Virus record (IMG/VR): IMGVR_UViG_3300035492_000030
Span: 1 to 64,000 of that record
Length of the DNA stretch: 64,000 nt
Source of the DNA: a virus
Strand: one strand, 5' to 3'
This document shows, piece by piece, positions 11,109 through 43,526 of the stretch. The notes beneath the pieces were generated by a model. That model worked only from the letters and a program-made list of their open reading frames with translations, was not told the origin of the DNA and made no database searches. The translations under genes and the position numbers were made by a program. Each line of letters opens with the position of its first letter. The first letter of the stretch is position 1.

Positions 11109-11377
11109 TGCGTTTCCTCCTTGGACAAATCAAACATAATTTTCAATGATTCTGCGAATTTACCCTTTACAGGTACTAGATCAAAACATTCTTCCCTATC
11201 CCACTGCTTAAATTCATCCGTTAGGTAGTGGTAGACAAAAGTTTTTAGTAATTTCCACTCACCGTCACATTGAGCTTCAATTTGCATCTGTCGTCCACCA
11301 AAATCTACACAGACGCGCATTTCAAGGATGTTCCATTTACGACCATCAGTGGTAAAGAAGTGGGGCAAGCAGTCCAT
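11105..11377 (-). CDS. Hypothetical protein, first gene of the leftward replication operon
   Basis: ATG at 11377 preceded by GGAGGAGAAACAAT. The ORF-track start at 11413 would lie at or upstream of the predicted TSS. Confidence 0.55.
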   Translation of the reverse strand: MDCLPHFFTTDGRKWNILEMRVCVDFGGRQMQIEAQCDGEWKLLKTFVYHYLTDEFKQWDREECFDLVPVKGKFAESLKIMFDLSKEETQ

Positions 11378-28573: not shown

Positions 28574-29296
28574 CTACAATTCAGATACGTCATTCAGTAT
28601 AGCACCTTCTCCATGAATTTCAACAGCTTTCTTATTATAAGCCATGGCTGCTTCCTGTTCGGATGCAAACTGACCTATCCAAATATATCCACCATTTCCG
28701 TCTCCAATTCTAGCAACCCAAGGTTTATTCCTATCTTTACTAAAAGATACCCCTCTATATTTTGAAGTATTCTTTTCTGTCTTTTCTTGTCGACGATTAT
28801 ATGACTGAGTACGCCTGTTTGACCATCTACAATTTTCTTTACAATAACCTCTATCTACATCAATCCTGTCTAAAGAAGTTCCTTCTGGGCGTTCTCCCAT
28901 GTCGTGTAGAAAATTTAAAAATCCATTAGGGCTTTCCTCTAACCAAGATTCTTCTTCTACAATAATCCCCCTACCACCATAATTTTCCCAACCAAGCCTT
29001 TTATCATTATAGCACCTGTGCATCATCGCAATAAAACTTTGATATTCGGGAGTATTTTTACCATCTTGATAACCACCATGCTTTCTATTTGATTCCGAAA
29101 GCATTTGACTTGTTGCGCAACCACAGGATTTTGTACTACCGTTTTTAAGACGCTGATGAGTTGTGTCATGTAAATTACCACAATCGCATTTACAAGTCCA
29201 TTTCTTTGACTTACTATAATCCTGTGCTCGGTATAAAACCGTCAGCATACCGAATTTAATTCCTTCCAGTTTAAGTTTTCGTAAAGCCATTTTCAA
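28574..29296 (-). CDS. Homing endonuclease (degenerate HNH DRID..GY..NCRW plus AP2-like domain)
   Basis: CKCDCGN...SCGC zinc motif, GERPEGTSLDRIDVDRGYCKENCRWS, then SKYRGVSF...WVARI (AP2-like). Paralog of 42612..43526. Confidence 0.65.
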   Translation of the reverse strand: MKMALRKLKLEGIKFGMLTVLYRAQDYSKSKKWTCKCDCGNLHDTTHQRLKNGSTKSCGCATSQMLSESNRKHGGYQDGKNTPEYQSFIAMMHRCYNDKRLGWENYGGRGIIVEEESWLEESPNGFLNFLHDMGERPEGTSLDRIDVDRGYCKENCRWSNRRTQSYNRRQEKTEKNTSKYRGVSFSKDRNKPWVARIGDGNGGYIWIGQFASEQEAAMAYNKKAVEIHGEGAILNDVSEL

Positions 29297-29727
29297 TCCT
29301 CTTCAAATCTATAAACTATTACGTTGTTGTCTTTTAAATATTTCACACCCTTGTCGCACCTATAATCATATTTATAATAAAATTCTGTGATGCCTGCGTC
29401 TACAATATCCACAGCACATATCTCACAGCAGGCGTGCGTACAAATTAGTGTTGCACCTACGGCAGATTCATTAGATTTGATTAGTCCAAGCAACGCATTC
29501 TTTTCACTGTGCCTAACATGTGGTTTCGTATTGCCATCTTCATCTTCCAAGCTACCCTTCATGTGTTCTGGAAGTGCATTATAACCACAAGAAATAATTC
29601 GATTATTTTTTACGATAACACTGCCCACTTTAAGCCGTTTTGAATCTGAGCATTCTGCAAAAGCTTCAGCGCACTTGAAGTATGCCTTTAGATGCTTATT
29701 TTTCACTATTCCTCCAAATAATTTCAA
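29293..29727 (-). CDS. dCMP deaminase
   Basis: 144 aa. HSEKNAL and CTHACCEICA zinc motifs. C-terminal AGITEFYY...VKYLKDNNVIV is typical of dCMP deaminases. Confidence 0.7.
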   Translation of the reverse strand: MKLFGGIVKNKHLKAYFKCAEAFAECSDSKRLKVGSVIVKNNRIISCGYNALPEHMKGSLEDEDGNTKPHVRHSEKNALLGLIKSNESAVGATLICTHACCEICAVDIVDAGITEFYYKYDYRCDKGVKYLKDNNVIVYRFEED

Positions 29728-32538: not shown

Positions 32539-33008
32539 TTACCCTCTTGCTGCTTGAGAATGTTGAAGATACAAATATCTTTATTACGATTAAAGCAATT
32601 ATAACTTCTACCTAACATCTTAAGCTTCTCCCACTCCATATCATACAGTTCTTCTTTCGTGTAATTCTGTACAGCAAGATGTTTTTCTCGCCACACCCTT
32701 ACAGAAGACATTCCTGCCAGATTTGCATTGAGAGTAGAATAGTCTAGTTCCCAGTGCTTGTAAACAAAAAATTGCAGTTTTTCACATAGCTCTGCAAAAG
32801 AAGGAGCTTCGATAACAAGCTCTGTAGCATTAGGCTTGAATTCTACAAGCTGAGGAAGGTCATCTTTCTGTTTTACAAGTGTACACTCTACGAGGGTTGG
32901 TTGCAAGACAAGAGCAAAACGTTTGTTGTCTAGCGTCCACCCATCACGAATAGCGTTGGTAAATTCAGATAGGAATGATACAGGGTTGTTTGCAACAATG
33001 TTTTTCAT
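32535..33008 (-). CDS. Hypothetical protein
   Basis: 157-aa ORF with a 4-nt overlap with phoH. Confidence 0.55.
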   Translation of the reverse strand: MKNIVANNPVSFLSEFTNAIRDGWTLDNKRFALVLQPTLVECTLVKQKDDLPQLVEFKPNATELVIEAPSFAELCEKLQFFVYKHWELDYSTLNANLAGMSSVRVWREKHLAVQNYTKEELYDMEWEKLKMLGRSYNCFNRNKDICIFNILKQQEGK

Positions 33009-33175
33009 TAATAGTCCTCTTCATATTCTACATCATTGAATCCCAGAAGATTGAACATCTGCACAAGCTCAGTTTTATCATCTTCTTGAGAGAACCAAAA
33101 ATGTTTTACTAGCTTATCTTCTTTGTAAACATCAATAGAAAAACCATCACATGCTTCTAATACAACTACTTTCAT
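33005..33175 (-). CDS. Small acidic hypothetical protein (56 aa)
   Basis: Below cutoff. Fills the 33009-33178 gap. Overlapping stop/start with the 32535 gene. Confidence 0.4.
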
Positions 33176-33178
33176 ATC

Positions 33179-33559
33179 TTATTCTCCCTTGTCACTGAAG
33201 ATATCACGAATTTCATTAAAATTAATTTTACGGATTTGGAATTTATCATTCACACGAAGATGTTCAAACCCGTTAGGATTGAATGCAAGACCCTTCCCTT
33301 CTCCTGTAACATAAACCATCTGACCTTTACACTCCTCCAGATTGTTTACGTTAAAGAATAGAAGAAGTTGACGAATCATCTCACAACCATATGCAGTACC
33401 AACACGGGTTTTACGCTCTTTATCGTAATCATCAAGGCAAATACCACCAACACCCTGACTAAAACCATCTTCATAATCAACAAAGACCCAGAAGTTTAGA
33501 ATACCACGTTCTTTAATTTCAAGAGTAGCACTCTTTACTTTGGCAAGTTTCTTTTCCAC
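33179..33559 (-). CDS. Hypothetical protein
   Basis: 126-aa ORF, co-oriented. Confidence 0.55.
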   Translation of the reverse strand: MEKKLAKVKSATLEIKERGILNFWVFVDYEDGFSQGVGGICLDDYDKERKTRVGTAYGCEMIRQLLLFFNVNNLEECKGQMVYVTGEGKGLAFNPNGFEHLRVNDKFQIRKINFNEIRDIFSDKGE

Positions 33560-33563
33560 AATT

Positions 33564-34085
33564 TTATTCCTCCACAGCTTTAGCTTTACGAGAACGACGT
33601 TGTTTCTTTGGTTGTTCTTCTACAAGATTAGTATCTTTGAACAGGTGGCGTGTAAAGTTTTCTTCTGGGATATTACTGGCTGCACTAAGTTTCCTAATCT
33701 GATTCAACTCTTCTTTGGTAAGTGGACCATCGTCTAGTTCATAGACAACATTCTGTTCTTTTTCAACAGCTTCCACAAAAGCATCTTGTTGAACAACTTT
33801 TTCTTTTGGGTCATCCATCTCTCCCTCTGCTACAAAACTCAGCACGTTTCCGTGGGCGGCTTCAACGATTTCTGCAACCTTTTTCAGAACAAGCTCTTTA
33901 GCATTTTCATCTGTCTTAGCAAGAGTGTCTTTATACAGAGTAGTGATTTCTTTTTCATTGCTCAGAGTGCCACAGAAGAATCCAACCTTGTGTTGGAATT
34001 TCACAAGCATAAAGCCTTGCTTTTGTTCTTGACGCAGAGTGTTGATGAAGGTGTTGAATGTGGAAGTTGAAATATTTTTAATCAT
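33564..34085 (-). CDS. Hypothetical protein (basic C-terminal tail)
   Basis: 173-aa ORF ending in KKQRRSRKAKAVEE. Confidence 0.55.
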   Translation of the reverse strand: MIKNISTSTFNTFINTLRQEQKQGFMLVKFQHKVGFFCGTLSNEKEITTLYKDTLAKTDENAKELVLKKVAEIVEAAHGNVLSFVAEGEMDDPKEKVVQQDAFVEAVEKEQNVVYELDDGPLTKEELNQIRKLSAASNIPEENFTRHLFKDTNLVEEQPKKQRRSRKAKAVEE

Positions 34086-34379
34086 TTAGTTAATCTCCTG
34101 TTTATTAGTTGGTTTTGGTAGCTCAACCACTTTAGTAATATCTTCTAAAGAATCTATTAGCTCGTATGTAGCTAATGAGATCGCCTCATTGTACCGTCTA
34201 CATTCTTCACTATGCAAGAACTTATCTACACGTTCAAAATCCTGCGGTGAAATGTGTTCATAAAGAATCTTGTAAAATTCTTTCTCTAGTGCAGTTAAGT
34301 CAAGTTGATGAAGCAATTGTAGCACATCTGGTTTATCAATGTAAAGGCTTTTCAAACTATCAAGAATTATTGTACTCAT
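34086..34379 (-). CDS. Hypothetical protein
   Basis: 97-aa ORF that abuts its neighbours. Confidence 0.55.
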   Translation of the reverse strand: MSTIILDSLKSLYIDKPDVLQLLHQLDLTALEKEFYKILYEHISPQDFERVDKFLHSEECRRYNEAISLATYELIDSLEDITKVVELPKPTNKQEIN

Positions 34380-34555
34380 CTTAGAATAATACTCTTGTCA
34401 ATACAAATATAAGGGTCGCTACCTGCTACACGAACAAGTATACCCCCTTTTTCAGAACAATTTAAAATCTTTCCCTGCTGTTCACTACCTTCCCGAACCA
34501 CAATGAGAAGAAGTATAATTGATGCTGTAACAAATATTGCAGTAAATATGTTCAT
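34376..34555 (-). CDS. Small membrane protein
   Basis: ATG at 34555 preceded by GGAGGAAGAA. TM segment IFTAIFVTASIILLLIVV. Confidence 0.5.
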   Translation of the reverse strand: MNIFTAIFVTASIILLLIVVREGSEQQGKILNCSEKGGILVRVAGSDPYICIDKSIILR

Positions 34556-34764
34556 TTCTTCCTCCAAACTTTAATAATTGCAAAGATAGCAGTAATAGGC
34601 CAAAAAGCAGCTCCAACGAATACACCACAACGAAATAGCTTTTCTCGTTCAATAATATCTTGTGGAGCTGTTCCAAGAAGCTTGTCGTCTTTCCACTCCC
34701 TCATTGTAGCATGATCTACAAGAAAAGCAACAACGCAATACAGAATTACAAGAATAGTTGTCAT
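34552..34764 (-). CDS. Membrane protein
   Basis: 70-aa ORF with two hydrophobic segments. ATGA coupling to the downstream gene. Confidence 0.5.
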   Translation of the reverse strand: MTTILVILYCVVAFLVDHATMREWKDDKLLGTAPQDIIEREKLFRCGVFVGAAFWPITAIFAIIKVWRKK

Positions 34765-34949
34765 TGAAGTTCTCTTTTACTGTAGGAGTTTTTATTTTCT
34801 TCGTCAAACAGTTCTGACAGAACTTCTCGCATAAGAGCCATTTCTGCTTTCCCGTGCACCGGCAGGCCACTTCCTCCGCCGTAATACTCTTCTGCAATTT
34901 CATTCAATTTAATTATAATTTTATTCATAAATTCTTTAGTGGGTTTCAT
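34761..34949 (-). CDS. Hypothetical protein
   Basis: 62-aa ORF with a 4-nt overlap. Confidence 0.5.
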   Translation of the reverse strand: MKPTKEFMNKIIIKLNEIAEEYYGGGSGLPVHGKAEMALMREVLSELFDEENKNSYSKRELQ

Positions 34950-35140
34950 CGAATTTCTTTTCCTCCTTTGATTGTGTCAATACATTTATCTACATGAATT
35001 GGCGCTATATAACAGTCCATAATGTATTTAATATTCTTTAGATACAATTCATTCCCAACCTCTTCTCTTACAAATTGACTGAAAGCATGGAAGCTGTCAG
35101 TCGGTTTTGGTTGTTTCTTGGCAGTCATATTAGTGTCCAC
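34946..35140 (-). CDS. Hypothetical protein
   Basis: 64-aa ORF with a 4-nt overlap. Confidence 0.5.
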   Translation of the reverse strand: MDTNMTAKKQPKPTDSFHAFSQFVREEVGNELYLKNIKYIMDCYIAPIHVDKCIDTIKGGKEIR

Positions 35141-35489
35141 AATTCATCCTCTCGTTATGCCACTCTAGAAGCAAGCCGACTTCAGCATAAGCTGGAAAGC
35201 TTGAATTCAATGCTACCAACTTCTTCAACGTAGTGCAACCACTATCCTCCAAATATTCTTTCAAATCAATATTCAACTTTGTAGCAATTCGTTTCAAATA
35301 TTTCGTCTCTGTGTTCGGGATATGAGAAGCAGGTAGACGCACACCAAGCCGACTACCTAAATTTCTCCAATAATTTTCATCAAGAAAATCCTGCTTGAGA
35401 TGTTCTCCAGCTTTCTTCTTTTCTTCACGAGCAATACGAGCTTTCTCAAGAGCTTCTGCTCTTTGTTCAGGTGTTAGATTTCCAAGCAT
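35130..35489 (-). CDS. Hypothetical protein, possible DNA-binding protein
   Basis: ATG at 35489 preceded by TTGGAGGATAAA. LTPEQRAEALEKARIAREEKKKAG looks like a helix-hairpin-helix-type N-terminus. Weak call. Confidence 0.5.
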   Translation of the reverse strand: MLGNLTPEQRAEALEKARIAREEKKKAGEHLKQDFLDENYWRNLGSRLGVRLPASHIPNTETKYLKRIATKLNIDLKEYLEDSGCTTLKKLVALNSSFPAYAEVGLLLEWHNERMNCGH

Positions 35490-35602
35490 TTTATCCTCCA
35501 ATTAATTTAAATTGTTCTAAGGCATACACAGCGAAGGGTACAATATCGAACGCAATTTTAACATATCATTTTCCTTAGTATCAATGTTTTTCATAGGCAA
35601 TT

Positions 35603-35836
35603 CTACAGCGTTTCTAAAGGCTTTGCAAGCCAATCCATTTCTTCTTCCTCATTATGCAACACCCAGCCATCTTCTTCAAGCTCTTTTGCACAATCAAGGC
35701 AGTAACTTCCGTAGTGAATGCAGTGTTTATAACCATCGTAGTCACATGTGGTTGCGGCTAAAGTAAGGTTAACACAAAGCTCGTTCCCTTCTTCATCCTC
35801 TAACAGTTCGTGTCCACACGACAAGTAGTGTGTCAT
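35603..35836 (-). CDS. Hypothetical Cys-rich protein
   Basis: 77-aa ORF with a 4-nt overlap with the upstream gene. Confidence 0.5.
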   Translation of the reverse strand: MTHYLSCGHELLEDEEGNELCVNLTLAATTCDYDGYKHCIHYGSYCLDCAKELEEDGWVLHNEEEEMDWLAKPLETL

Positions 35837-36033
35837 TTTGGTTCCTCTAGTGGCCCACAGAATTCAATTCCATCTTCTTTGGTGTACGGATCATCCCAAC
35901 ATTCAAACACATCATTATAAGAAGCCCCTTTCTTGAGCTTATCAATCCACACACCCCATTTATCCCTCATCCAATACCACCCATCTTCTGTTGGAATCTC
36001 TTTAGTCCATTGTTGCACGGTAGTGTTCTTCAT
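35833..36033 (-). CDS. Hypothetical protein, first gene of the leftward 36.0-23.4 kb block
   Basis: 66-aa ORF with GAGGAGGACTCATAA upstream of the ATG. Confidence 0.55.
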   Translation of the reverse strand: MKNTTVQQWTKEIPTEDGWYWMRDKWGVWIDKLKKGASYNDVFECWDDPYTKEDGIEFCGPLEEPK

Positions 36034-36189
36034 TTATGAGTCCTCCTCTGATTGAATGTGAAACAAGCATAGCACAACGAAGAAAAGGAATGCAAGCTCT
36101 TTGTTGGAGAAATCTCTATACAAGATGTTGTTGACATTGTACTCGGTGTTGGTGTATCCTTACCTTTCAGATTACACAAAGGAGGTAGT

Positions 36190-36744
36190 ATGAGCTTTGA
36201 AAACGTAAAAGATAAGAACGTAGTTCTTGTAGTCAACACAGAAACAGGAGAGGTTGTTTCAAAAGTCCACACCAAAGAAAAGTTTGCACCACTACCGTTG
36301 GTATTTACAGAGAAGGGTAAATATGTTGGTGTGGATGTAAAATACCCAAGTGAATGTCTGTGTGCTGAACAATATTTTGATGCAGTATGTCAATTGGACG
36401 GACTTGCAACCAACAAAGTGAAGGTGAACACAGAAATGGTTCTTGACAACGTAGCAGAGGGGTTGTGGTCTGTTGGCGATGTTAAGATGATTAAATTCTT
36501 ATCCTTGAATGTAGTAGCGCATAACAGGGTATTCACAACCACTAAGGAGATTGAAGAATCTCTTAACGTTAGGAGTAGTCATCTGTCAAGATGGTTTAAG
36601 AACAACACAGGAATTTGTAAGGTAGTGAAGAAAAGAGGTACATTGATCATTGACATGAATCCTGTGTTGATGTATAAAGGCTCAGAAGAGTGGAGATCCT
36701 ACCATCTCTCTGTATGGTGTTCACAAATCCCTTATATTAAGTAG
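36190..36744 (+). CDS. Hypothetical protein, possible wHTH DNA-binding protein; paralog of 23402..24094
   Basis: 184-aa ORF with AAAGGAGGTAGT RBS. Conserved blocks shared with the 23402 ORF (see that entry). Confidence 0.6.
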   Translation: MSFENVKDKNVVLVVNTETGEVVSKVHTKEKFAPLPLVFTEKGKYVGVDVKYPSECLCAEQYFDAVCQLDGLATNKVKVNTEMVLDNVAEGLWSVGDVKMIKFLSLNVVAHNRVFTTTKEIEESLNVRSSHLSRWFKNNTGICKVVKKRGTLIIDMNPVLMYKGSEEWRSYHLSVWCSQIPYIK

Positions 36745-36862
36745 GTATGGATCACCTTTTCAGTATTGGTGTGGGCTTCAGGGGTTTTGAAGTTACCACG
36801 CATGGTAAGTTTGACAAGTAAGTGGTTAAGATGGTTAAATTTTGAACACTTTTGGGGGTAGT

Positions 36863-37054
36863 ATGAAACGTGATTGTGATGTTTGCACAGGAAGTGGTGT
36901 CGTGGTGTCTGAGGGAGATACCTATGATTGTTACCATTGTGGTGGGAAAGGAGAGGTAGAAGGTTGTATTTGTTTTGCACGAGAACCTTTTGAGTGTTCG
37001 TGTGGTGGATGGGATGATGTAGATATAGACCAATGGTATGGAGATGATTACTGA
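36863..37054 (+). CDS. DnaJ-type CxxCxGxG zinc-finger mini-protein
   Basis: 63 aa from the ATG at 36863, with CDVCTGSG and CYHCGGKG repeats. Confidence 0.5.
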   Translation: MKRDCDVCTGSGVVVSEGDTYDCYHCGGKGEVEGCICFAREPFECSCGGWDDVDIDQWYGDDY

Positions 37055-37233
37055 TGAAGATTAAAGAGCTAATCAAAGAGTTACAGAAATACGATCAAGA
37101 AGCTATTGTATGGGTGTGGCAAAAGTCATTTCTTGGAGAGGAAAGTGGACAGAACAGAATCTATCGCAGTAAGCTGGAGTTTGTAACACAGTCTAAAAAC
37201 AATGTTCTTAAAATCTACTTGGATGGAGAGTGA
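37054..37233 (+). CDS. Small hypothetical protein (59 aa), MKIKELIKELQK family
   Basis: Below cutoff. ATG overlaps the upstream TGA. Paralog-like to 12490 and 27947. Confidence 0.45.
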   Translation: MKIKELIKELQKYDQEAIVWVWQKSFLGEESGQNRIYRSKLEFVTQSKNNVLKIYLDGE

Positions 37234-37235
37234 TA

Positions 37236-37715
37236 ATGAGTGAGCATGAGAAGTGTGTTGGTGAATCTGATGAATGGTATACTCCTAAATCTATTTTTGA
37301 TGCGATTGGCCTTACTTTTGACCTAGACCCGTGTTCACCAAGCAAAGAACATTGGACCCCGGCAAAGAAATTCTATACAAAGGAAGACGACGGACTGTTA
37401 TCGGAGTGGCAAGGTTTGGTGTGGATGAACCCTCCTTTTGGCGGTAGGAACGGACAAGTCCCTTGGCTTAGGAAATTCATTTCTCACGGAAATGGGATTG
37501 CACTTGTTGCAGCAAGAACTTCGTCTGGATGGTTCCATGAAATTGCTCCTCAGATGGATGGAATGCTTTTTCCAAAAGGAAAGACAAAATTTGTAAAACC
37601 AGACGGGACGATTGGAAAGTCACCCGGCACAGGCGTTGTGTTGTTTTCTTTAGGTCAGGTTGCATCAAATGCGCTTAAAAACAGCGGTCTGGGGATTTAT
37701 CTTGATATTAAATAA
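37236..37715 (+). CDS. dam: DNA N6-adenine methyltransferase (phage Dam-type)
   Basis: SDEWYTPKSIFDAIGLTFDLDPCSP and WMNPPFGG (NPPF catalytic motif). Confidence 0.75.
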   Translation: MSEHEKCVGESDEWYTPKSIFDAIGLTFDLDPCSPSKEHWTPAKKFYTKEDDGLLSEWQGLVWMNPPFGGRNGQVPWLRKFISHGNGIALVAARTSSGWFHEIAPQMDGMLFPKGKTKFVKPDGTIGKSPGTGVVLFSLGQVASNALKNSGLGIYLDIK

Positions 37716-37738
37716 TCCCTGAATTTATAAATTAAGTC

Positions 37739-37767
37739 TTGACAAAGAAACTTTAAGTTGATAGACT
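37739..37767 (+). promoter_or_regulatory. sigma70-type promoter
   Basis: TTGACA-17-TAGACT with GAATTTATAAATTAAG UP-like element. Confidence 0.6.
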
Positions 37768-37808
37768 ATAAGAAATCCAAGCAATTAACAAAAATAAAGG
37801 AATTTCTT

Positions 37809-37958
37809 ATGTCTTACACAGAGCTAGATGAACATGATTTGAAATACATTATAGAAGAGGAAGAAGAAACTAAAGAGCCTAAATTTAGATGGGAGTATTC
37901 TCATGAGTCTCTTACTGAATCAAACAGCATCTTTAAAAGAATTCTTCCTGATTATTAA
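37809..37958 (+). CDS. Small acidic hypothetical protein (49 aa)
   Basis: ATG at 37809 with AAGGAA upstream. Confidence 0.4.
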   Translation: MSYTELDEHDLKYIIEEEEETKEPKFRWEYSHESLTESNSIFKRILPDY

Positions 37959-37965
37959 ATATAGC

Positions 37966-37994
37966 TTGACAATATGAAATATTTATGTTATATT
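37966..37994 (+). promoter_or_regulatory. sigma70-type promoter driving a short non-coding transcript
   Basis: TTGACA-17-TATATT. Confidence 0.65.
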
Positions 37995-38000
37995 TGGCAC

Positions 38001-38172
38001 TGAATGACTAATAGCGTCAAGAAAGTAAATTTCATAACGTTTCTCCTCCAAAACGGGAATGTCACGAACACATATTCCTCCTACTGTGTTCATATAATAC
38101 CCGTAAACAAACCGCGCAATGTGGTTTAGCCTTATCCACTTATTCCTCCTAGAGAGGATAAGGCTTTTTCTT
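38001..38172 (+). ncRNA. Candidate sRNA of about 170 nt with three CCUCC (anti-SD-like) motifs
   Basis: Bounded by the 37966 promoter and a strong intrinsic terminator. TTCTCCTCC at 38041, ATTCCTCCTA at 38075 and 38142. No plus-strand ORF. Confidence 0.5.
38128..38172 (+). terminator. Rho-independent terminator
   Basis: AGCCTTATCC-18 nt-GGATAAGGCT followed by TTTTCTT. Confidence 0.75.
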
Positions 38173-38310
38173 ATGTTGTGTAAATGTACAGGCTGATGTA
38201 CGGGCGTCAACCGCTTAAACGATGCCAGAACGCGAAAGCGTCGCGGAACTCGCCGGAGATCGTGGGTAAGGCCGGCATGTCGGAGATCAGTACCGACTAC
38301 ACAACATAAT
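38171..38310 (+). other. GC-rich multi-hairpin element closed by a 12-bp stem
   Basis: TTATGTTGTGTA (38171-38182) pairs with TACACAACATAA (38298-38309). Inside are about 5 hairpins, two with the same CGGAGATC 5' side. Confidence 0.6.
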
Positions 38311-38350
38311 AAAGAGCCTTAGATAATAAATATTAAAAGGACAATGAATT

Positions 38351-38740
38351 ATGAGTGGGAATAAAAACCCAAGTCACAAGTTTCCGAAAAACAATGATTT
38401 TGGAAACAAAAATGGTAGTCCAGCAAAAACAAGGATTACCAAATCAAAGCTTCGTAAGCTGGCAGACAAACTTCGTGAACGTGAAGACATTGCTCTTGCA
38501 ATCGTTGACCGCTCTCTTGCAGAACAAGAAGTAGCTAATGATGTTGTGTCTACTGCCAAGTGGGTGCTAAATAGTATCGTTACCATTGAAAAGGCTGCTT
38601 CAGCAGAAGAAATTTCTAACTTCAATGCAAGGATGAAGGGTAGAGAGTCTGACGAAGAAGAACAGACCCCTGAAGAGATTGCAGCAGAGGCACCTAAGAG
38701 ACTATCCCTCGTCTATCAAGCACCAGACGATGAGGATTAA
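38351..38740 (+). CDS. Hypothetical protein (possible small terminase subunit; weak)
   Basis: 129-aa ORF. Basic N-terminus (KNNDFGNKNGSPAKTRITKSKLRKLADKL) and acidic C-terminus. Function is inferred only from composition and neighbourhood. Confidence 0.55.
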   Translation: MSGNKNPSHKFPKNNDFGNKNGSPAKTRITKSKLRKLADKLREREDIALAIVDRSLAEQEVANDVVSTAKWVLNSIVTIEKAASAEEISNFNARMKGRESDEEEQTPEEIAAEAPKRLSLVYQAPDDED

Positions 38741-39004
38741 AGAATTTACCTGAGAAGATTGGGAGTTCCTAGTCGTTCCAAACAAGATCGTTTGGCAGGT
38801 AAACCAAATCCGGCTCGGCCGGTATCTTCGCAATTATAGCCTAGTTCCGAAGATAGCCCGATAAACCAAAGGCAATTTTATATTGCTACTATCGGGCGAT
38901 TTAATTCGTGCATACTAAATGTTGCACATATGTGGGGAGGGGAATCGCTTATGGATTCTCGGATAGTGAGCAGGTAGCTGTGGCTACACTATCACGATTT
39001 CTAT

Positions 39005-39088
39005 GCGGGAGTAGCCGAGGGGAGCTTCTAACTCCTTATCCGTAAATGGAGCTGAAAATGTGCGTTCGACTCGCACCTTCCCGTGCCA
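39005..39088 (+). other. tRNA-like fragment with canonical T-arm and encoded CCA but aberrant D-arm
   Basis: GTGCG-TTCGACT-CGCAC T-arm, acceptor-like GCGGGAG/TTCCCGT, ...GCCA end, GGGAG-CTTCTAA-CTCCT anticodon-like arm. Cannot be folded into a standard cloverleaf. Confidence 0.3.
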
Positions 39089-39093
39089 AATTT

Positions 39094-39171
39094 GCCGATG
39101 TAGCATAGATGGATATGCACTAACCTTGTAAGTTAGATCAGGTGGGATCGTTACCTTCACCATCGGCACCA
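39094..39171 (+). tRNA. tRNA-like gene, anticodon UGU (Thr), non-canonical T-arm
   Basis: Acceptor GCCGATG/CATCGGC 7/7 bp. D-arm GCAT-AGATGGAT-ATGC. Anticodon arm CTAAC-CTTGTAA-GTTAG. Discriminator A plus encoded CCA. The T-arm GTGGG/TTCAC has two G-U pairs and a 9-nt loop. Confidence 0.45.
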
Positions 39172-39199
39172 ATTCTATCTATCTTAGGAATTTATAATA

Positions 39200-40024
39200 A
39201 TGAAAACATTGAGCCTAGTAGATAGCGATATTTACTACAATATCTATACAGAAAGTGAATATCCACAAGGAACAACTCTTGTTGTTCATAACAGAACATC
39301 AGATGTATTATTCGTAACGCACTCAGCTACTCAACCTGATCCAGATACACTTCTCTGTGAATTTATTGCTGTTGGTCAAACTGTAGTAGTTCATGCCAAC
39401 GGTCTTCCTATCTGGATTAAAGGTAGTAATGGTCCTATTGTTGTCCAAGCAATTACAGAAAAACTTGTTGCTCCTTTTGAAGTGAGTGACCTTCCTCATG
39501 ATGTATTTACATGGGATCAAGAAGGGTATCGTAGACTTAGGGTAGACAGCGGTCAGACAAGCTTCTTCACAGGCCGGCAAGGTAGAAGCTTTAAAGAATT
39601 CAGTATTGCAGCAGCAGGAACATATTTGATTCAGGTAGTTGTTCCAGTGGATACTGTTCTGTGGAATGTTAGTTTGACAGTTGATGCAGGCAGCGTTAGA
39701 TTTGCTACCTATTCTGGTGGTACACCTTCAGTAACACTCACTGATCCAATCCCATCTATTCCTAAAAATACAATGTCGTCAAGACCTACTCCCCTATACA
39801 CCCTACAAAATACTCTTGTGGGAGGTGTAGCTACTTTAACAGGCGGCACTCTGATTGACGTTGCAAGAGTTGTTACAAGTGGGGCTACAGCACAACAAAC
39901 AACAGTAGGTAGTAGCCCATTCAGCGAACGTGGTGTTGGTATCGGCACTTATCATTTTGTGTTGAACAACTTTAGTAATGGTACAGCAACTGGTGTCCTA
40001 AGCCTCTATTGGGAAGAGCGTTGA
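39200..40024 (+). CDS. Putative virion structural protein (tail-fibre-associated / receptor-binding candidate)
   Basis: 274-aa ORF, Thr/Ser/Gly/Val-rich beta-type composition, immediately upstream of the tailspike cassette. Confidence 0.5.
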   Translation: MKTLSLVDSDIYYNIYTESEYPQGTTLVVHNRTSDVLFVTHSATQPDPDTLLCEFIAVGQTVVVHANGLPIWIKGSNGPIVVQAITEKLVAPFEVSDLPHDVFTWDQEGYRRLRVDSGQTSFFTGRQGRSFKEFSIAAAGTYLIQVVVPVDTVLWNVSLTVDAGSVRFATYSGGTPSVTLTDPIPSIPKNTMSSRPTPLYTLQNTLVGGVATLTGGTLIDVARVVTSGATAQQTTVGSSPFSERGVGIGTYHFVLNNFSNGTATGVLSLYWEER

Positions 40025-40045
40025 AAATAAGTAGTATTATAGAAG

Positions 40046-40081
40046 CCTCTTGAAATCAGAAAAATTTCTTGAGGTTTTTAT
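40046..40081 (+). terminator. Rho-independent terminator
   Basis: CCTCTTGAAAT...ATTTCTTGAGG (2 internal mismatches) followed by TTTTTATT. Confidence 0.55.
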
Positions 40082-40105
40082 TAATTCTATTTAAGAGAAT
40101 TCAAT

Positions 40106-40375
40106 ATGAAAATCTCAATAATTATTTTTTCAATATTTCTCATTCTATCTTGTTCTGTTTTTAATCCAGCTACACCAAAGATGGTGAGGAATACATCGAC
40201 GATCACGATTGTTGAGAATCCACATATTAAAACAGATGGTTACGCAAGATGGTATGGTGACGTCTGTTTCATAGAGTTGAAGAGATATCCTGTATGTCTT
40301 GCTCATGAAGTAAGGCATTGCTTAGAAGAACATTTTCATCCTGAAGGAATATACAGTTCTGAGGATTGTAATTAA
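40106..40375 (+). CDS. Small lipoprotein with HExxH motif
   Basis: Signal peptide plus lipobox MKISIIIFSIFLILSC. LAHEVRHCLEEHFH (HExxH...H). Confidence 0.55.
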   Translation: MKISIIIFSIFLILSCSVFNPATPKMVRNTSTITIVENPHIKTDGYARWYGDVCFIELKRYPVCLAHEVRHCLEEHFHPEGIYSSEDCN

Positions 40376-40392
40376 ATATTTTGGAGAAATAA

Positions 40393-42210
40393 GTGACAAA
40401 TCTTACAGAAAATAGCGTATGGGAAAGTGGAATCTATCAACTAGAAACAGATGATCCTACCCTCGGCGGTCCTCCCGGTTTTAATCTTGGTGAGCCAGTA
40501 ACGGGACATGCTAATGCTCAAGCCCAGCAACTAGCTAATAGAACCTCTTATCTAAAAAATACACATGAAGTTTTTGTTTCTGATCTCGCCAACGCAACCG
40601 ACCCGGCGAAGGGGGCGGGGTTAGTTGGGTGGAACCGTGGAACCGTGCATAGTGAGTCCCGCGACTTGGGTGAAAAAGCTAGAACAGAGCAACGATCTGT
40701 TCTCGACTTCATCCCGAAATCGCAGCACTCGGCAATCCTGGGTGGCACTTCTACGTGGGACGCTTCTGCCGCCGTCAACTACGCAATCAGAGAATTGGGC
40801 GGTGGCGAGATCTTAATCCCTAAAGGAGTCAGGCTTGCCATCGCTGCGCCTATAGACATTATCAGGGGCACACTACTGAAAGGTGGTGGTCCTTTCGATG
40901 ACGCGGCCGGAGTCGGTTCCAAGATATACTTGCTACCGGGATCGAACTGCCCCATGCTCCGAACTCCAGCAGCGATCCTTGGAGCATCTGCTGCGACCCA
41001 TTTCATGGGACTGGAGAATCTACTTTTCGACGGCAACAAATCCGGTCAGACGGTTGAAAGTGAAGCTGTCCAGTTCCACGGGGTATGGGTTGGTAGTTGG
41101 TTGCGCAATATAGCAATCCACAATGCGCTTGGGTCCGCGCTCACTCTACAGGCAGGCAGCGACCTAGAGATTGATCACCTATGGATTCTCGGTACTCAGT
41201 CCGAGTCTGGTTATGCGTTTGACACGAACAAGGATATTGCTACAGGTGCGCAAGGTCTACTGAATATCAATCACATGTACGTCGAGAATACCAGCAACAA
41301 GGCTGGTGGCGCACCGCGCACGGTTGAAGCTGATCGGGGGAAAAACATCCGACTGCACCGCCTGGTTACGTGCAATATCAACGAGGTGCACACCGAGGGT
41401 GCTTTGAGGCCGATAGACCTTGAGGCCAACCATTTAGTACGTATCGGCAAGGTTTCTGCGGCTTTCTGCGGAGTCGCTGCTGAAGCGGACAGCGCCATCG
41501 TGCGCAACGTCGGAAACGGGAATAGATCAATATCCATCGGGGCAATGGAGTCTTATCGGCACGCAGATGGAACTAAGTTCGTCGGACTATCGGCAGGAAC
41601 AACGTCGAACAACTTCCAAGAACTCCCTATGGAGAATCCAACCGTCCCATATGTTGGCGGGTATACGGCGGTCAATGCTGATGGCTACGGAACGCAACGC
41701 CAAGCGCCGACGATCTTCTCCCGCTCCGGTGGCGTCCAAGCCGTAGGGGGCGCAGCAACATCTACTTGGCGTTTCTACAATTCCACATTGGGATCAAGTC
41801 ACTATCTCAAGCAGAACGGGCAAACTCTTTCCATTGGATCGAATTGGCTTCAACCAAGCTCCGCTGACAAGAACTTCATCGACATTTTTAGTTCAGGTAA
41901 TGCGGGTGACAGGGTAGACATCAACGTCCCGTTCCGACTTCCAGCAAGATCTTCTGCAAACACAATTGCAGCCACGGCAATGTGGCGTTGCGATACAAAT
42001 GTCGGCTTTGGTGTTGGTCCAGTGTACCAACGATCCGTAGGGTCTAATGCTGACGCAGACACTATAGCGACAGTTAGAAGGGGATCAGGTGCTCCTACTA
42101 TTTCTGCAGATTATATCGGCCAGCAATATGTGGACATCACGAACAGGGCTGGCTACATGGCGGTTAACTTTGGCACAGGCGCGACCGACTGGAAGCAAGT
42201 AACTGCATGA
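40393..42210 (+). CDS. Tail fibre/tailspike with conserved N-terminal anchor and GC-rich beta-helix-like (depolymerase-type) body
   Basis: 605 aa, GTG start with GGAGAAATAA RBS. N-terminus SVWESGIYQLETDDPTLGGP...ANAQAQQLANRTSYLKN is a common tail-fibre N-terminal block. GGGEILIPKGVRLAIAAPIDI fits a pectate-lyase-type start. GC content rises sharply from about 40575. Confidence 0.7.
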   Translation: MTNLTENSVWESGIYQLETDDPTLGGPPGFNLGEPVTGHANAQAQQLANRTSYLKNTHEVFVSDLANATDPAKGAGLVGWNRGTVHSESRDLGEKARTEQRSVLDFIPKSQHSAILGGTSTWDASAAVNYAIRELGGGEILIPKGVRLAIAAPIDIIRGTLLKGGGPFDDAAGVGSKIYLLPGSNCPMLRTPAAILGASAATHFMGLENLLFDGNKSGQTVESEAVQFHGVWVGSWLRNIAIHNALGSALTLQAGSDLEIDHLWILGTQSESGYAFDTNKDIATGAQGLLNINHMYVENTSNKAGGAPRTVEADRGKNIRLHRLVTCNINEVHTEGALRPIDLEANHLVRIGKVSAAFCGVAAEADSAIVRNVGNGNRSISIGAMESYRHADGTKFVGLSAGTTSNNFQELPMENPTVPYVGGYTAVNADGYGTQRQAPTIFSRSGGVQAVGGAATSTWRFYNSTLGSSHYLKQNGQTLSIGSNWLQPSSADKNFIDIFSSGNAGDRVDINVPFRLPARSSANTIAATAMWRCDTNVGFGVGPVYQRSVGSNADADTIATVRRGSGAPTISADYIGQQYVDITNRAGYMAVNFGTGATDWKQVTA

Positions 42211-42252
42211 TGCCGGCACCTGACTTGGAGTCAGGTCTCTCCACCCTCTAAG

Positions 42253-42277
42253 GCCCCGCACTGCGGGGCTTTTTCTT
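42253..42277 (+). terminator. Rho-independent terminator
   Basis: GCCCCGC-act-GCGGGGC followed by TTTTTCTT. Confidence 0.75.
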
Positions 42278-42490
42278 GGGCTGACCAGGCCTCGGGCGCC
42301 CATCGGGCGCATCAGCCACCGGCAATCCGCCATCTGTCGTGACGCCATACTGGCCCGCAACGACCATTGCGGGTTTATTGTTAGAATGTCAGCACAATAC
42401 AACTGGACTCGACCATGCTAGACCTTCGTGGTATCAGGATTGACATAAAAGCTATCAGTGATTCTGTAGGGTATAATTTACACCGAGATA

Positions 42491-42520
42491 TTGACAAATA
42501 GAAGTAATATTTGCTAATAT
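42491..42520 (+). promoter_or_regulatory. sigma70-type promoter upstream of the HEG/terminase genes
   Basis: TTGACA-18-TAATAT. Confidence 0.55.
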
Positions 42521-42611
42521 ATGTTTTATTGACTCGTTGTGAAACGCTCCGCTTTATTTGAAAGACACGTCGAGATGACGCTCAGTTTCTTAGATTTATA
42601 GGAGACTGAAT

Positions 42612-43526
42612 ATGATAGAAGATAGGCCGAAGGGATTTGTTGATTACACAGGGTTTAAAACTGGTAAAGTAACAGTCCTTGAATTCCACTCTTGGCATGT
42701 TCAACCAAGTGGTCAACGAAAGTCTAAATGGCTTTGTCAGTGTGACTGCGGAAACAAGTTTGTTGCTCTTGGATACAACATTAAGAAAGAAGGTCATACT
42801 ACTTCTTGTGGTTGTGAAAAGAAAGTAACAATTAAAAAGTTTTGGGCAAAAGTAAATTCAGGTGAATGGGTTCCAGAGAAACTTATTGGTGAAAGATTTG
42901 GTAGGCTTTTTGTAAATGGATTCAGTCATTGGCATGAAAGCGAATCACAAAGAACATCCGTATGGGATTGCACTTGTGACTGCGGTAATACAGTGAAGAT
43001 GCGACGTCCATATCTAATGAGTAATGAAGTTTCAAGCTGTGGTTGTTATAAATCAGAAATTCTTTCCGCACTGCAAACAAAACACGGGATGCATGGAACA
43101 CCTACTCATAAATCTTGGACGAAGATGAAAGAGCGGTGCCTATCAGAGTACTATAAAGAGAAAGAGTATTATCAAGACAGAGGTATTACAATCTGTCAAG
43201 AATGGATTGACTCTTTTGAAGCGTTTTATGCAGACATGGGCGAACGACCAGAGGGAACTTCTTTAGATAGGATTGACCCTAATAAAGGTTACTATAAAGA
43301 AAATTGTCGATGGTCTGATCTTACTATCCAAGCGTACAATCGCAGGATGAACACCAATAACACATCAGGTAGGACTGGCGTCTATCAACTTAAAAACGGC
43401 AACTGGCAAGCAATTATTGTCCACTATAAAGAAAGAATCACATTAGCATATGATGTTTCCTATGAGGAGGCTTGTAAAGCGAGAGAAGAAGGAGAGTTGA
43501 AATACTATGGCTGGACAAAACAATGA
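42612..43526 (+). CDS. Homing endonuclease (degenerate HNH plus AP2-like), paralog of 28574..29296
   Basis: Two CxCDCGN...SCGC repeats, GERPEGTSLDRIDPNKGYYKENCRWSD, NTSGRTGVY...WQAII (AP2-like). Its 3' end overlaps the terminase start. Confidence 0.65.
   Translation: MIEDRPKGFVDYTGFKTGKVTVLEFHSWHVQPSGQRKSKWLCQCDCGNKFVALGYNIKKEGHTTSCGCEKKVTIKKFWAKVNSGEWVPEKLIGERFGRLFVNGFSHWHESESQRTSVWDCTCDCGNTVKMRRPYLMSNEVSSCGCYKSEILSALQTKHGMHGTPTHKSWTKMKERCLSEYYKEKEYYQDRGITICQEWIDSFEAFYADMGERPEGTSLDRIDPNKGYYKENCRWSDLTIQAYNRRMNTNNTSGRTGVYQLKNGNWQAIIVHYKERITLAYDVSYEEACKAREEGELKYYGWTKQ

Follow-up and report, generated by a model that had tools for sequence, protein, structure and literature searches.

Small RNAs with several hairpins, the C-rich loops of which pair with the G-rich Shine-Dalgarno (SD) regions of many mRNAs, are known from bacteria, e.g., RNAIII and RsaE of S. 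aureus and sX13 of Xanthomonas. In phage T4, a class of the phage's early mRNAs is inactivated by the endoribonuclease RegB via the GGAG in their SD sequences. The closest analogue of the RNA described here, although not a homologue, is the cuckoo/alpha-r14 family of the Alphaproteobacteria (NfeR1, CcsR/RSs0680; RF02344). Cuckoo RNAs consist of 2-4 hairpins with an anti-SD (aSD) motif in every loop, and their stems are dominated by compensatory mutations (PMC4615179). In NfeR1, three aSD motifs redundantly silence the targets via occlusion of the ribosome-binding site (RBS) (PMC10746234). Very few small RNAs have been described from virulent phages, and a mechanism is available for almost none. 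The band C and D RNAs of T4 have remained unexplained since the 1970s; like sRNA1 and sRNA2 of phage PAK_P3, they are encoded in or beside the tRNA cluster of a large virulent phage, are abundant in infection, and have no known function (PMC4933390).

The locus studied here is located in a stretch of 64,000 nt of phage DNA, called the window below. It consists of an intergenic element on the plus strand (37966-38350), directly upstream of a gene for a 129-aa protein (38351-38740, plus strand). The element very probably encodes a divergent member of an undescribed and widespread family of folded phage RNAs with pyrimidine hairpin loops, here designated CU-loop RNAs; that these are real, structured plus-strand RNAs is almost certain. 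With the cuckoo RNAs they share the 2-4 adjacent hairpins with a C/U-rich, anti-SD-like motif in each loop, stems of barely conserved sequence with many compensatory changes, and a conserved neighbourhood beside a gene of unknown function. However, their loops contain CUCUCCU or UUCCUCCU, whereas those of cuckoo contain the ultraconserved CCUCCUCCC, which is present in no loop listed for the window or the family. They further differ in being encoded by virulent-type phages instead of bacterial chromosomes or plasmids, and in their usual fusion to a tRNA 3' end, with a long stem (stem B) further downstream. A search with the cuckoo model RF02344 at its gathering score found no match in the window or in 16 family loci; a search of 37700-38400 at E ≤ 10 was negative as well. 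RNAIII, RsaE, and sX13 differ from the CU-loop RNAs by their unrelated sequence, by being host-encoded, and by their UCCC or CCCC motifs in place of CUCUCCU. The likeness to RegB is a functional analogy only, RegB being a protein nuclease and the agent proposed here an RNA complementary to GGAG, and the band C and D RNAs of T4 are likened to CU-loop RNAs by their description.

Promoter, terminator and fold of the RNA

The phage in the window is distantly related to Pseudomonas phage vB_PsaM_M1, and the related cultured phages infect Pseudomonas. Phage vB_PsaM_M1 belongs to the Ounavirinae, and the clade carrying the CU-loop RNA family is uncultivated and related to it. The locus has the following features:

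37966-37994, plus strand: sigma-70-type promoter TTGACA-17-TATATT with TG upstream of the -10 element; it scores 11/12 and is the top sigma-70-like site in 33000-43000
38001-38038, plus strand: variable 5' leader, holding the complement of a 15-codon minus-strand ORF; not alignable with relative L025
38039-38052, plus strand: single-stranded 5' motif GUUUCUCCUCCAAA (CU motif 1, CCUCC at 38045), unpaired in the fold
38053-38104, plus strand: hairpin A with loop UAUUCCUCCUAC (CU motif 2, CCUCC at 38077), from the fold and the relatives
38109-38127, plus strand: hairpin B, AAACCGC/GUGGUUU with loop GCAAU; three pairs with compensatory double changes among four relatives
38128-38172, plus strand: terminator hairpin with a 10-bp stem and an 18-nt loop containing AUUCCUCCUA (CU motif 3, CCUCC at 38145), followed by UUUUCUU
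38160-38320, plus strand: long stem B (5' arm 38160-38182, 3' arm 38299-38320), from whole-leader folds
38183-38298, plus strand: branched insert at the tip of stem B, G+C ~60%
38351-38740, plus strand: conserved 129-aa gene, the anchor of the locus, with 44 homologues

Judged from its sequence, 37966-38172 is an independently transcribed, non-coding plus-strand RNA of ~170 nt. A first-pass annotation of this DNA had proposed such a discrete RNA between a near-consensus promoter and an intrinsic terminator with a 10-bp stem. Both elements are present, and the discrete RNA is supported by the conservation of the motif-bearing hairpins with compensatory changes. Transcription is expected to start near 38001. 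Equivalent promoters are found in the relatives L006 (TTGACA-17-TATAGT) and L151 (TTGACA-17-GATAAT, read by eye from the sequence); in L025, TGnTATAAT with a weak -35 element was read from the alignment and was not called by the promoter scan. In the terminator, AGCCTTATCC (38128-38137) pairs with GGATAAGGCT (38156-38165), and this G+C-containing stem is directly followed by a U-rich tract (TTTTCTT, 38166-38172), as in Rho-independent terminators. The terminator scan missed it because the loop limit of the scan is 8 nt, whereas the loop here measures 18 nt. The stem shows a compensatory change from U-A to C-G in L025, L151, and L148, and the family model described below aligns the hairpin to family hairpin H4 with its conserved tail UUUCUUAA.

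The segment 38000-38175 folds with a free energy of -43.3 kcal/mol (z = -4.3), and none of 200 shuffled sequences folded equally well. CU motif 1 is unpaired in this fold, and CU motifs 2 and 3 are in hairpin loops. L025 has an identical motif 1 and L151 a shorter version, GUUUCUCCAAAA; the family model aligns motif 1 to the invariant AGUUUCACC at the 5' end of the family RNAs. Hairpin A, aligned by the model to family hairpin H2, has an outer stem (38053-38057/38100-38104) and an inner stem (38066-38072/38085-38091); in the outer stem, three pairs show compensatory double changes among the four relatives, with 100% of the cells paired. The 5' leader varies in length among L025, L151, and L148.

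The three CCUCC motifs counted in the annotation are indeed there (CCTCC at 38045, 38077, and 38145), as is TTCTCCTCC at 38041. Both reported copies of the 10-mer ATTCCTCCTA exist as well, the second at 38142, but the first is at 38074 instead of 38075. Three CCTCC in ~105 nt are only modestly unusual within the window (p ~0.1 in a genome-wide scan, a rough estimate), which contains 85 copies on both strands against 63.7 ± 8.3 expected. What is decisive for the motifs, on sequence grounds, is the comparative evidence and not this count. Among 51 non-redundant loci, the 450 nt upstream of the orthologous gene contain 181 occurrences of CCTCC, CTCTCC, CTCCTC, or CCCTCC on the plus strand vs. 9 on the minus strand. 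The four close relatives that form the window subgroup (the window, L025, L151, and L148) keep the CCUCC motifs in their loops while the stems show compensatory changes, and UUCCUCCU is invariant in the loops of all four. In the window, the loops UAUUCCUCCUAC and ACUUAUUCCUCCUAGAGA present a pyrimidine-only motif with core CUCCU on at least two covarying hairpins. This core, common to the CUCUCCU and UUCCUCCU loops, is the complement of the SD core AGGAG.

The annotation had also stated that the transcript contains no plus-strand ORF and had suggested that it could form a type I toxin-antitoxin pair with a gene on the opposite strand. A plus-strand ORF does exist (41 codons from an ATG, 38004-38129), but it was rejected as a gene, since it is not conserved in L006 or the wider family. 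On the minus strand, GGAGGAGAAACGTT-ATG and the 15-codon frame are present as described, and the encoded peptide (37988-38035), the RBS and start codon of which would be masked by the plus-strand RNA, is hydrophobic. A toxin function is nevertheless extremely improbable, and the proposal was rejected because the 15-codon ORF is not conserved. The ORF is located in the non-conserved leader 38001-38038; MKFTFLTLLVIQCQI is without a counterpart in L025 and L006, which lack a comparable ATG or frame, L151 and L148 have leaders of unrelated sequence, and ~33 other family members show no conserved minus-strand ORF. Furthermore, the GGAGG regarded as a strong RBS is the unavoidable complement of CU motif 1, membrane-spanning type I toxins are longer than 15 residues, and the minus strand offers only weak promoter-like sites: those at 38210-38183 and 38184-38155 reach only 9/12, and the regional total of such sites is not above that of shuffles. 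A longer minus-strand ORF (75 aa, 37983-38210), which according to the annotation itself could prove to be a conserved protein gene, is not conserved either; it has no Pfam or PHROG match, and in L025 only an unrelated ORF of 30 aa is left.

A family of RNAs with pyrimidine loops

A four-hairpin RNA with nearly pure C/U loops (core CUCUCCU) is encoded at this position and in this orientation in approximately 35 uncultivated relatives. The fold of the family consists of three or four adjacent hairpins, the stems of which vary by compensatory change while the loops stay pyrimidine; the loops read CUCUCCU in most members and UUCCUCCU in the window subgroup. Separate minimum-free-energy folds of 23 members all gave the same architecture, i.e., H1-H4 and stem B, with the CU motifs in the loops. 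CUCUCCU is present in 54 and UCUCCU in 66 of 76 CU loops, which are 8-16 nt long and composed of 51% C, 43% U, 6% A, and 1% G. The RNAs are located in a tRNA/non-coding island that precedes the 129-aa gene, where the block of structural genes begins. In L014, L015, L019, L036, and L062, the 3' end of a tRNA abuts the 5' end of the RNA, which often starts exactly at the CCA end of the tRNA (CCA followed by GUUUCACC at the junction). A tRNA transcript presumably carries the RNA as its trailer in most relatives; in the window subgroup, the RNA would be made from a promoter of its own and end at a strong terminator.

Because the stems have no sequence in common, H2 was the only hairpin that RNAalifold recovered from a plain MAFFT alignment. 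Single-sequence folds were projected onto the alignment, and a covariance model, R1, was then built. R1 identified 33 loci at E < 0.01, with the element at the same position as in the window (either preceding the 129-aa gene or within the tRNA island). In the R1 alignment, 86.0% of the cells are paired, compared with 58.9% after shuffling and 36-43% after sliding, the pairing being somewhat inflated by fitting of the alignment to the model's own structure. Double (compensatory) changes are found in 45 of the 46 pairs, and the covariation score is 0.486 vs. 0.148 (shuffled) and ≤ 0.084 (slid).

With the filters off, the top match of R1 in 2.5 kb of the window is 38038-38174 on the plus strand (18.7 bits, E 1.7e-4; next match 4.5 bits), a low score that a default-filter scan of the whole window missed. 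In this match, the 5' motif, H2, H4, and the tail follow the order of the model; H1 is missing, and H3 has been replaced. R1 also matched the close relatives L025 (E 0.044) and L006 (E 2.6e-4). Another match in the window, at 35360-35449 (E 0.012), covers 90 nt of the 187-position model and is antisense to a gene; it was taken as chance. Within the window subgroup, 100% of 78 cells are paired (30-43% in slid controls), with double changes in six pairs. The core of the RNA is 97% identical to that of L025, vs. ~50% identity for the adjacent proteins.

Most of the hairpin structure would also form in a minus-strand RNA, with loops reading AGGAGAGG or AGGAGGAA. These contain GGA, which in loops is a recognition feature of CsrA/RsmA, and, with related cultured phages infecting Pseudomonas, a phage-encoded sponge for CsrA/RsmA of the RsmY/RsmZ type could be envisaged. 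However, the promoters in the window, L006, and L151 and the U tract of the terminator are on the plus strand, the element is joined head-to-tail to plus-strand tRNAs, and all flanking genes are on the plus strand. Moreover, G.U exceeds A.C at the paired positions (99 vs. 50), and the minus-strand promoter-like sites reach only 9/12. An RNA from the opposite strand is thus highly unlikely; unlike in the GGA-loop sponges CsrB/RsmY/RsmZ, the promoter, the U tract, and the abutting tRNAs are on the strand where the loops read C/U.

Neither Rfam 15 nor cultured-phage genomes contain the CU-loop family. At the gathering score, Rfam 15 matched only tRNAs in the whole window and 16 family loci, and a BLAST search of 50,697 phage genomes with the region and with a canonical member gave no near or distant match. 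An exact-pattern scan of IMG/VR for the window terminator found none, and a literature search for the loop motif yielded only unrelated microRNA papers and no description of the family. An E-value scan of 37700-38400 gave only a weak match to the Betaproteobacteria toxic small RNA (RF02278), in which a single-stranded UCUCCUCC anti-SD motif at the 5' end is followed by a terminator hairpin, as at 38040-38172. Membership was rejected: this best Rfam alignment reaches 15.9 bits vs. a gathering score of 50 (E = 1.9) and covers only the motif and the terminator, with unmatched insertions of 71 and 18 nt. PAK_P3 sRNA1 begins with UCACCACACGAA, recalling the AGUUUCACCACAC of the CU-loop family, but it is without CU loops, scores 1.8 bits with R1 (E 7.4), and was rejected as a homologue.

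Stem B, the following gene and a possible role in cis

The 5' arm of stem B overlaps the 3' arm and the U tract of the terminator, and stem B forms only in read-through transcripts, in which the U tract would refold to become part of a long stem immediately before the following gene. Whole-leader folds of the window and L025 favour stem B. The sequences of the arms differ between the two with the pairing kept (AUGUUGUGU/ACACAACAU in the window vs. AUACACUAU/AUAGUGUAG in L025), and an equivalent UUUCUUAAG...CUUAAGAAA stem is found in all family members folded. In the window, the tail UUUCUUA with the U tract is the 5' arm, and the stem ends just before the next RBS, 30 nt before the start codon (about 20-30 nt across loci). 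Stem B is plausibly a processing or stabilising element. The insert at its tip has no Rfam match at E ≤ 5-10; L025 and L151 have unrelated sequence there, and in L148 it is absent.

The 129-aa protein has a basic, disordered N-terminus followed by helices. It has no match in Pfam or PHROG, its AlphaFold model (pLDDT 72.7) has no structural match at E < 1, and the syntenic ORF of phage M1 shows no detectable similarity to it. No relative of the gene was found in GTDB genomes, which gave no clue to the host. A single-protein scan of IMG/VR with the 129-aa protein yielded nothing, whereas profile scans did find the relatives.

The hairpin array and stem B could together form a 5' untranslated region that controls the following operon. 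Such control might be exerted by read-through of the terminator (attenuation), by processing by RNase III/E that parts the tRNA precursor from the mRNA and stabilises the latter, or by pyrimidine loops that recruit ribosomes or S1 and that stem B places close to a weak RBS. The element is located directly upstream of the same gene, in the same orientation, in nearly all loci; such a placement in most members also fits a cis-acting role and counts against a reading in trans. The RBS of this gene is weak and GGAG-free (AAAGGA or AUAGGU), stem B, with the overlap and the position described above, covaries between the window and L025, and the H4 tail UUUCUUAA of the family is only a moderate terminator, suggesting that read-through is likely. 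In contrast, the RNA's own promoter in the window, L025, L151, and L006 and the strong terminator in the window fit a discrete RNA. Approximately 13 relatives have the 129-aa gene without the element, and the element is kept where a tail-fibre-like gene or an additional ORF lies between it and the gene (L103 and L035/L036). Furthermore, a specific loop motif in three or four hairpins exceeds the needs of a processing site. A cis-acting leader is an unlikely explanation of the element, but roles in cis and in trans are compatible and not mutually exclusive.

Proposed pairing with ribosome-binding sites and other possible modes of action

The RNA probably tunes translation during infection. The annotation had suggested an anti-SD translational regulator, and with the motifs conserved and cuckoo/NfeR1 as a precedent, this is the best mechanism available; the mechanism itself we infer by analogy, and we regard the case for anti-SD base pairing as close to evenly balanced. 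The exposed loops and the 5' single strand would pair with AGGAG/GGAGG RBSs of mRNAs and occlude them, and the RNA would act as a multivalent translational repressor. As a whole, a member of the CU-loop family that acts by anti-SD pairing is our best explanation of the locus, put forward tentatively and just short of what we would call probable.

GGAG is present in the RBS of ~45% of the genes of the window phage. Perfect complements to the CU motifs are located exactly at the RBSs of four of them:

11105-11377, minus strand: 12 nt, complementary to CU motif 1
93-1010, minus strand: 11 nt
33179-33559, minus strand: 10 nt
29293-29706, minus strand: 9 nt

The best-matching sites are RBSs of left-arm (minus-strand) phage genes, which suggests that one gene class may be shut off during infection; host mRNAs are further possible targets. 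At GGAGG in minus-strand RBSs, pairing of the motif flanks averages 7.70 nt vs. 6.83 nt with shuffled flanks (p ~0.035), and nine sites pair over at least 9 nt vs. 2.7 in controls (p ~0.026), a marginal result (p ~0.03) from one genome in which several tests were run. No such excess is found at RBSs on the plus strand (p 0.24) or at sites outside RBSs (p 0.84). The types of loop and RBS show only a non-significant trend toward co-variation: GGAGG is found in 17 of 44 RBSs in the window vs. 8 of 36 in phages with CUCUCCU loops, the p-value being ~0.1 by our own estimate and the relatives being represented by pieces of only ~4 kb. A CUCCU seed would match phage and host mRNAs alike, which counts against the specificity of anti-SD pairing. 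The commonest loop of the family, CUCUCCU, is not the best complement of the canonical SD sequence (AGGAGG).

Loops in multiple copies on stable stems are also the design of protein-titrating RNAs, i.e., CsrB/RsmY/RsmZ, CrcZ, and 6S; in CsrB and RsmZ, GGA loops are presented to CsrA. By analogy, the three or four pyrimidine loops might form a multivalent platform for a protein that binds single-stranded C/U sequences. Rho, ribosomal protein S1, and cold-shock or KH proteins would be candidates, as would a host ribonuclease or a defence toxin that attacks the anti-SD end of 16S rRNA. Primary binding sites of Rho bind YC dinucleotides, and CUCUCCU, the loop found most often, consists of successive YC steps and is not a perfect anti-SD sequence; with ~94% C+U, 8-16 nt, three to four copies, and stable stems, the loops would suit such a platform. 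The location of the element in a tRNA island may also be considered in this respect, as phage tRNAs counter host defences that target translation. However, Rho-binding sites are normally unstructured, the neighbouring 129-aa protein gave no informative fold match, and the present data would fit protein binding and base pairing alike. We consider a protein sponge improbable.

Rather unlikely, too, but of wider consequence, is a broader proposal: a multivalent RNA in the tRNA operons of large virulent phages, the pyrimidine loops of which imitate the anti-SD end and which serves as a decoy or as a RegB-like switch. As a decoy, it could soak up Rho, sparing the untranslated phage tRNA and late transcripts, or a ribonuclease directed against the 3' end of 16S rRNA. 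As a switch, by analogy with RegB, it could turn off a class of phage or host mRNAs at GGAG sites; for the targeting of early genes, this draws on the marginal statistic given above.

The CU-loop RNAs form a well-defined family, with ~35 members, strong covariation, a sharp sequence signature, and a positional link to phage tRNA genes. With no entry in Rfam 15 and no match in cultured-phage genomes, the family could serve as a marker for an uncultivated clade related to vB_PsaM_M1. It offers a directly testable hypothesis, i.e., pairing with AGGAG ribosome-binding sites. If this hypothesis is true, phages use a multi-loop anti-SD design that alphaproteobacteria evolved independently, and an RNA tool would be added to the known means by which phages reprogram translation. 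If, instead, the decoy or the RegB-like reading is true, the CU-loop RNAs would represent a new class of phage RNAs for translation takeover or anti-defence.

The element and its genomic setting

The window is a phage genome, carrying genes for a large terminase, an HNH endonuclease and a Dam-type methylase as well as tail-fibre-like genes. Its terminase is closest, among cultured relatives, to that of Pseudomonas phage vB_PsaM_M1 (Ounavirinae), with 82% identity at a nearly identical coordinate, followed by those of phiPMW and SYP (~63% identity). No nucleotide-level match to the window was found among 50,697 phage records. The genes of the left arm, up to ~35.8 kb, lie mostly on the minus strand, and those from 36.1 kb on lie on the plus strand. 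The element, a plus-strand RNA of ~170 nt, lies within a 392-nt gap between two genes:

37809-37958 (+): 49-aa gene
37966-37994 (+): promoter, TTGACA-17-TATATT, with TG upstream
38045, 38077 and 38145 (+): CCTCC of CU motifs 1, 2 and 3
38128-38137/38156-38165 (+): 10-bp terminator stem, followed by UUUUCUU
38351-38740 (+): 129-aa gene, whose product gave no functional clue

The promoter, the terminator and the three motifs reported in the first-pass annotation were all recovered, the promoter (11/12) being the top promoter-like site within 10 kb. Both copies of a reported 10-mer are present, one of them starting at 38074 rather than 38075, and the region, said to be devoid of plus-strand ORFs, does contain a mechanical one of 41 codons (38004-38129). 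The predicted fold of 38000-38175 is far more stable than those of shuffled sequences (z = -4.3, 0/200 as good), with motif 1 single-stranded and motifs 2 and 3 in hairpin loops. The occurrence of three CCTCC motifs is only mildly surprising when judged within one genome, and the main weight of the evidence for the element is comparative.

A structured RNA family in related phages

A total of 44 homologues of the 129-aa protein were found in metagenomes. Scanning guided by profiles and looking up contigs yielded ~70 loci, mostly on viral contigs of 80-95 kb. For 51 non-redundant loci, the 450 nt preceding the gene contain CCTCC-like hexamers or pentamers 181 times on the gene strand vs. 9 times on the other, the background being ~1.2 CTCC per 450 nt. 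Reading of the upstream regions and separate folding of 23 of them revealed a single shared architecture:

5' end: conserved AGUUUCACC
H1: hairpin with an A-rich loop
H2, H3 and H4: hairpins with pyrimidine loops (CU loops)
H2-H3 linker: conserved ACUUAAAG
Tail: UUUCUUAAG, which doubles as the 5' arm of stem B
Stem B: long stem with CUUAAGAAA as its 3' arm, ending ~20-30 nt ahead of the start codon

The CU loops consist of 51% C, 43% U, 6% A and 1% G; 54 of 76 contain CUCUCCU and 66 UCUCCU. Because the stems share no sequence, alignment by sequence alone was unsuccessful. Single-sequence folds of ten members, projected onto a MAFFT alignment, gave a covariance model, R1 (187 positions, 46 pairs), which matched 33 loci at E < 0.01. 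In the R1 alignment, 86.0% of cells pair, vs. 58.9% after shuffling and 36-43% with the partners slid, compensatory double changes occur in 45 of the 46 pairs, and the covariation score is 0.486 (0.148 shuffled, ≤ 0.084 slid); this alignment was fitted to the model and is hence biased towards the structure, but the margin is still large. Independent single-sequence folds concur with the R1 structure. As to the strand, G.U outnumbers A.C at paired positions (99 vs. 50), plus-strand promoters are present in the window and in two relatives (L006 and L151), and the plus strand also carries the U tract of the terminator, the tRNAs that abut the element and the genes on either side. The element is a conserved, structured plus-strand RNA that exposes loops with a CUCCU core.

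In five loci (L014, L015, L019, L036 and L062), the element starts at the final base of a tRNA, i.e., CCA directly followed by GUUUCACC, and there the RNA must arise as a tRNA trailer. In locus L103 (IMG/VR UViG_3300042147_000025), the RNA is parted from the 129-aa gene and followed by a tail-fibre-like gene, and in L035/L036 ~1.2 kb containing an ORF intervenes, which shows that the RNA and the gene normally next to it can be separated by insertions. In L006, the leader (2612-2650) contains a strong AGGAGG and, after it, an 8-codon ORF, MKDSWEDY, immediately 5' of UUUUCUCCUCC, which could pair with this AGGAGG; the window shows no such feature.

Downstream of the 129-aa gene, tRNA-Thr(UGU) is present in the relatives M1, L002, L006 and L013, directly preceding the homologue of a 274-aa gene in M1. 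ARAGORN and a whole-window Rfam scan reported no tRNA in the window. A focused scan with the Rfam tRNA model revealed a tRNA-Thr(UGU)-like gene with an aberrant T arm at 39094-39168(+) (38.5 bits vs. a gathering score of 29) and, upstream of it, a weaker tRNA-like stretch at 39005-39084(+) (22.4 bits, E 0.11). Hence, the seemingly empty 460-nt gap (38741-39199) represents a tRNA cluster that has decayed. Another conserved non-coding block (…AATCGCAGTACACAGGAA…GGCTGGACACTACTTAGGG) is common to the tRNA island of cultured vB_PsaM_M1 (L001 5195-5310) and metagenomic relatives (L016 ~1497-1615; L043) and absent from the window; it may represent another unannotated phage RNA. In M1, the place of the 129-aa gene is taken by an unannotated ORF of 126 codons (L001 4535-4915(+), i.e., OP714164.2 38534-38914), where the record instead has an overlapping minus-strand CDS, UZS00911.1; pairwise similarity between this ORF and the 129-aa protein was not detectable.

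Membership of the window's RNA

The top R1 match in 37000-39500, with filters off, is 38038-38174(+) (18.7 bits, E 1.7e-4; runner-up 4.5 bits), a weak score that a default-filter scan of the whole window did not detect. The order of elements is kept, with GUUUCUCC aligned to AGUUUCACC, hairpin 38066-38091 to H2, the terminator to H4 and UUUUUCUUAU to UUUCUUAA; H1 is absent, and a small hairpin takes the place of H3. In its position, its strand, the motifs in its loops and its stem B, the RNA does agree with the family. A further, weak R1 match, at 35360-35449(+) (19.6 bits, E 0.012), lies on the strand opposite to gene 35130-35489, extends over only 90 nt of a model with 187 positions and is probably due to chance.

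Closer relatives settle the question of conservation. The RNA core of L025 is 97% identical to that of the window over ~90 nt, whereas the adjacent proteins are only ~50% identical. L151 and L148, whose neighbour proteins share 64% and 78% identity with that of the window, retain the three hairpins with changed stem sequences. In an alignment of these four sequences, 78 of 78 cells are paired (30-43% in slid controls), with double changes in six pairs. The motifs are conserved: UUCCUCCU occurs unchanged in the loop of the terminator, and CCUCC always lies within the loop of hairpin A (38053-38104); in two relatives, motif 1 has only CUCC in place of CUCCUCC. Covariation between the window and L025 extends to stem B. 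At the tip of this stem, the window, L025 and L151 have G+C-rich inserts of similar size but unrelated sequence, and L148 lacks an insert. The window's insert (38183-38298) is multi-branched, with 60% G+C in a genome of otherwise ~40%, and matched neither Rfam nor tRNAs; small mobile or tRNA-derived sequences may insert recurrently at this site.

An alternative reading had been a toxin-antitoxin-like pair with a 15-codon minus-strand ORF. This ORF sits in the variable 5' leader; it is missing from L025 and L006, and the leaders of L151 and L148 are unrelated sequences. A 75-aa minus-strand ORF is without family match and not conserved either. Since neither ORF is conserved, this reading was rejected.

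Proposed mode of action and relation to known RNAs

The CUCCU-core loops would pair with AGGAG/GGAGG ribosome-binding sites, which we infer to be the mode of action. GGAG is present in the ribosome-binding sites of ~45% of the phage's genes. Perfect complements of 12, 11, 10 and 9 nt to the CU motifs lie exactly on the ribosome-binding sites of four minus-strand genes, and the CCUCC flanks lengthen the pairing at minus-strand sites compared with flank-shuffled controls (p ~0.03). No such effect was found at plus-strand ribosome-binding sites or at GGAGG elsewhere. This marginal statistic hints at shut-off of left-arm genes by the RNA. Co-variation of loop type with ribosome-binding-site type across phages was not significant. 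Many left-arm genes have a common extended ribosome-binding site, UUGGAGGA(A/U) (e.g., minus-strand 35495, 34561, 30863, 29711, 27259, 10844 and 4384), which on both flanks deviates from what is usually complementary to the 16S 3' end, AAGGAGGU, and whose flanks are matched by the CU motifs.

A cis-acting role, as leader or in processing, is a less likely alternative: stem B and the element's close association with the gene that follows would fit it, but the element has its own promoter and terminator, some relatives carry the gene without the element, and at some loci other genes intervene. As another less likely alternative, the RNA may act as a protein decoy.

As for known RNAs, a search of the window and 16 family loci against Rfam 15 gave no family at threshold, with the Betaproteobacteria toxic sRNA giving the sole weak alignment (15.9 bits vs. 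a gathering score of 50), and no match to the family was found among cultured phages. The sRNA1 of PAK_P3, an abundant late RNA adjoining the tRNAs of that phage (PMC4933390), starts with a similar UCACCACACGAA, yet does not match R1. In design, the cuckoo/alpha-r14 family comes closest among known RNAs, with 2-4 hairpins, CCUCCUCCC in every loop and stems in which compensatory mutations predominate (PMC4615179). In NfeR1, a member of that family, ribosome-binding sites are occluded by three motifs that act redundantly (PMC10746234). The phage RNAs are set apart by their motif, host, link to tRNAs and stem B, and they fail the RF02344 model; they are cuckoo-like on paper but not members of that family. 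The finding is genuine and leads to a family of phage RNAs not described before, which has an analogue whose mechanism is known.
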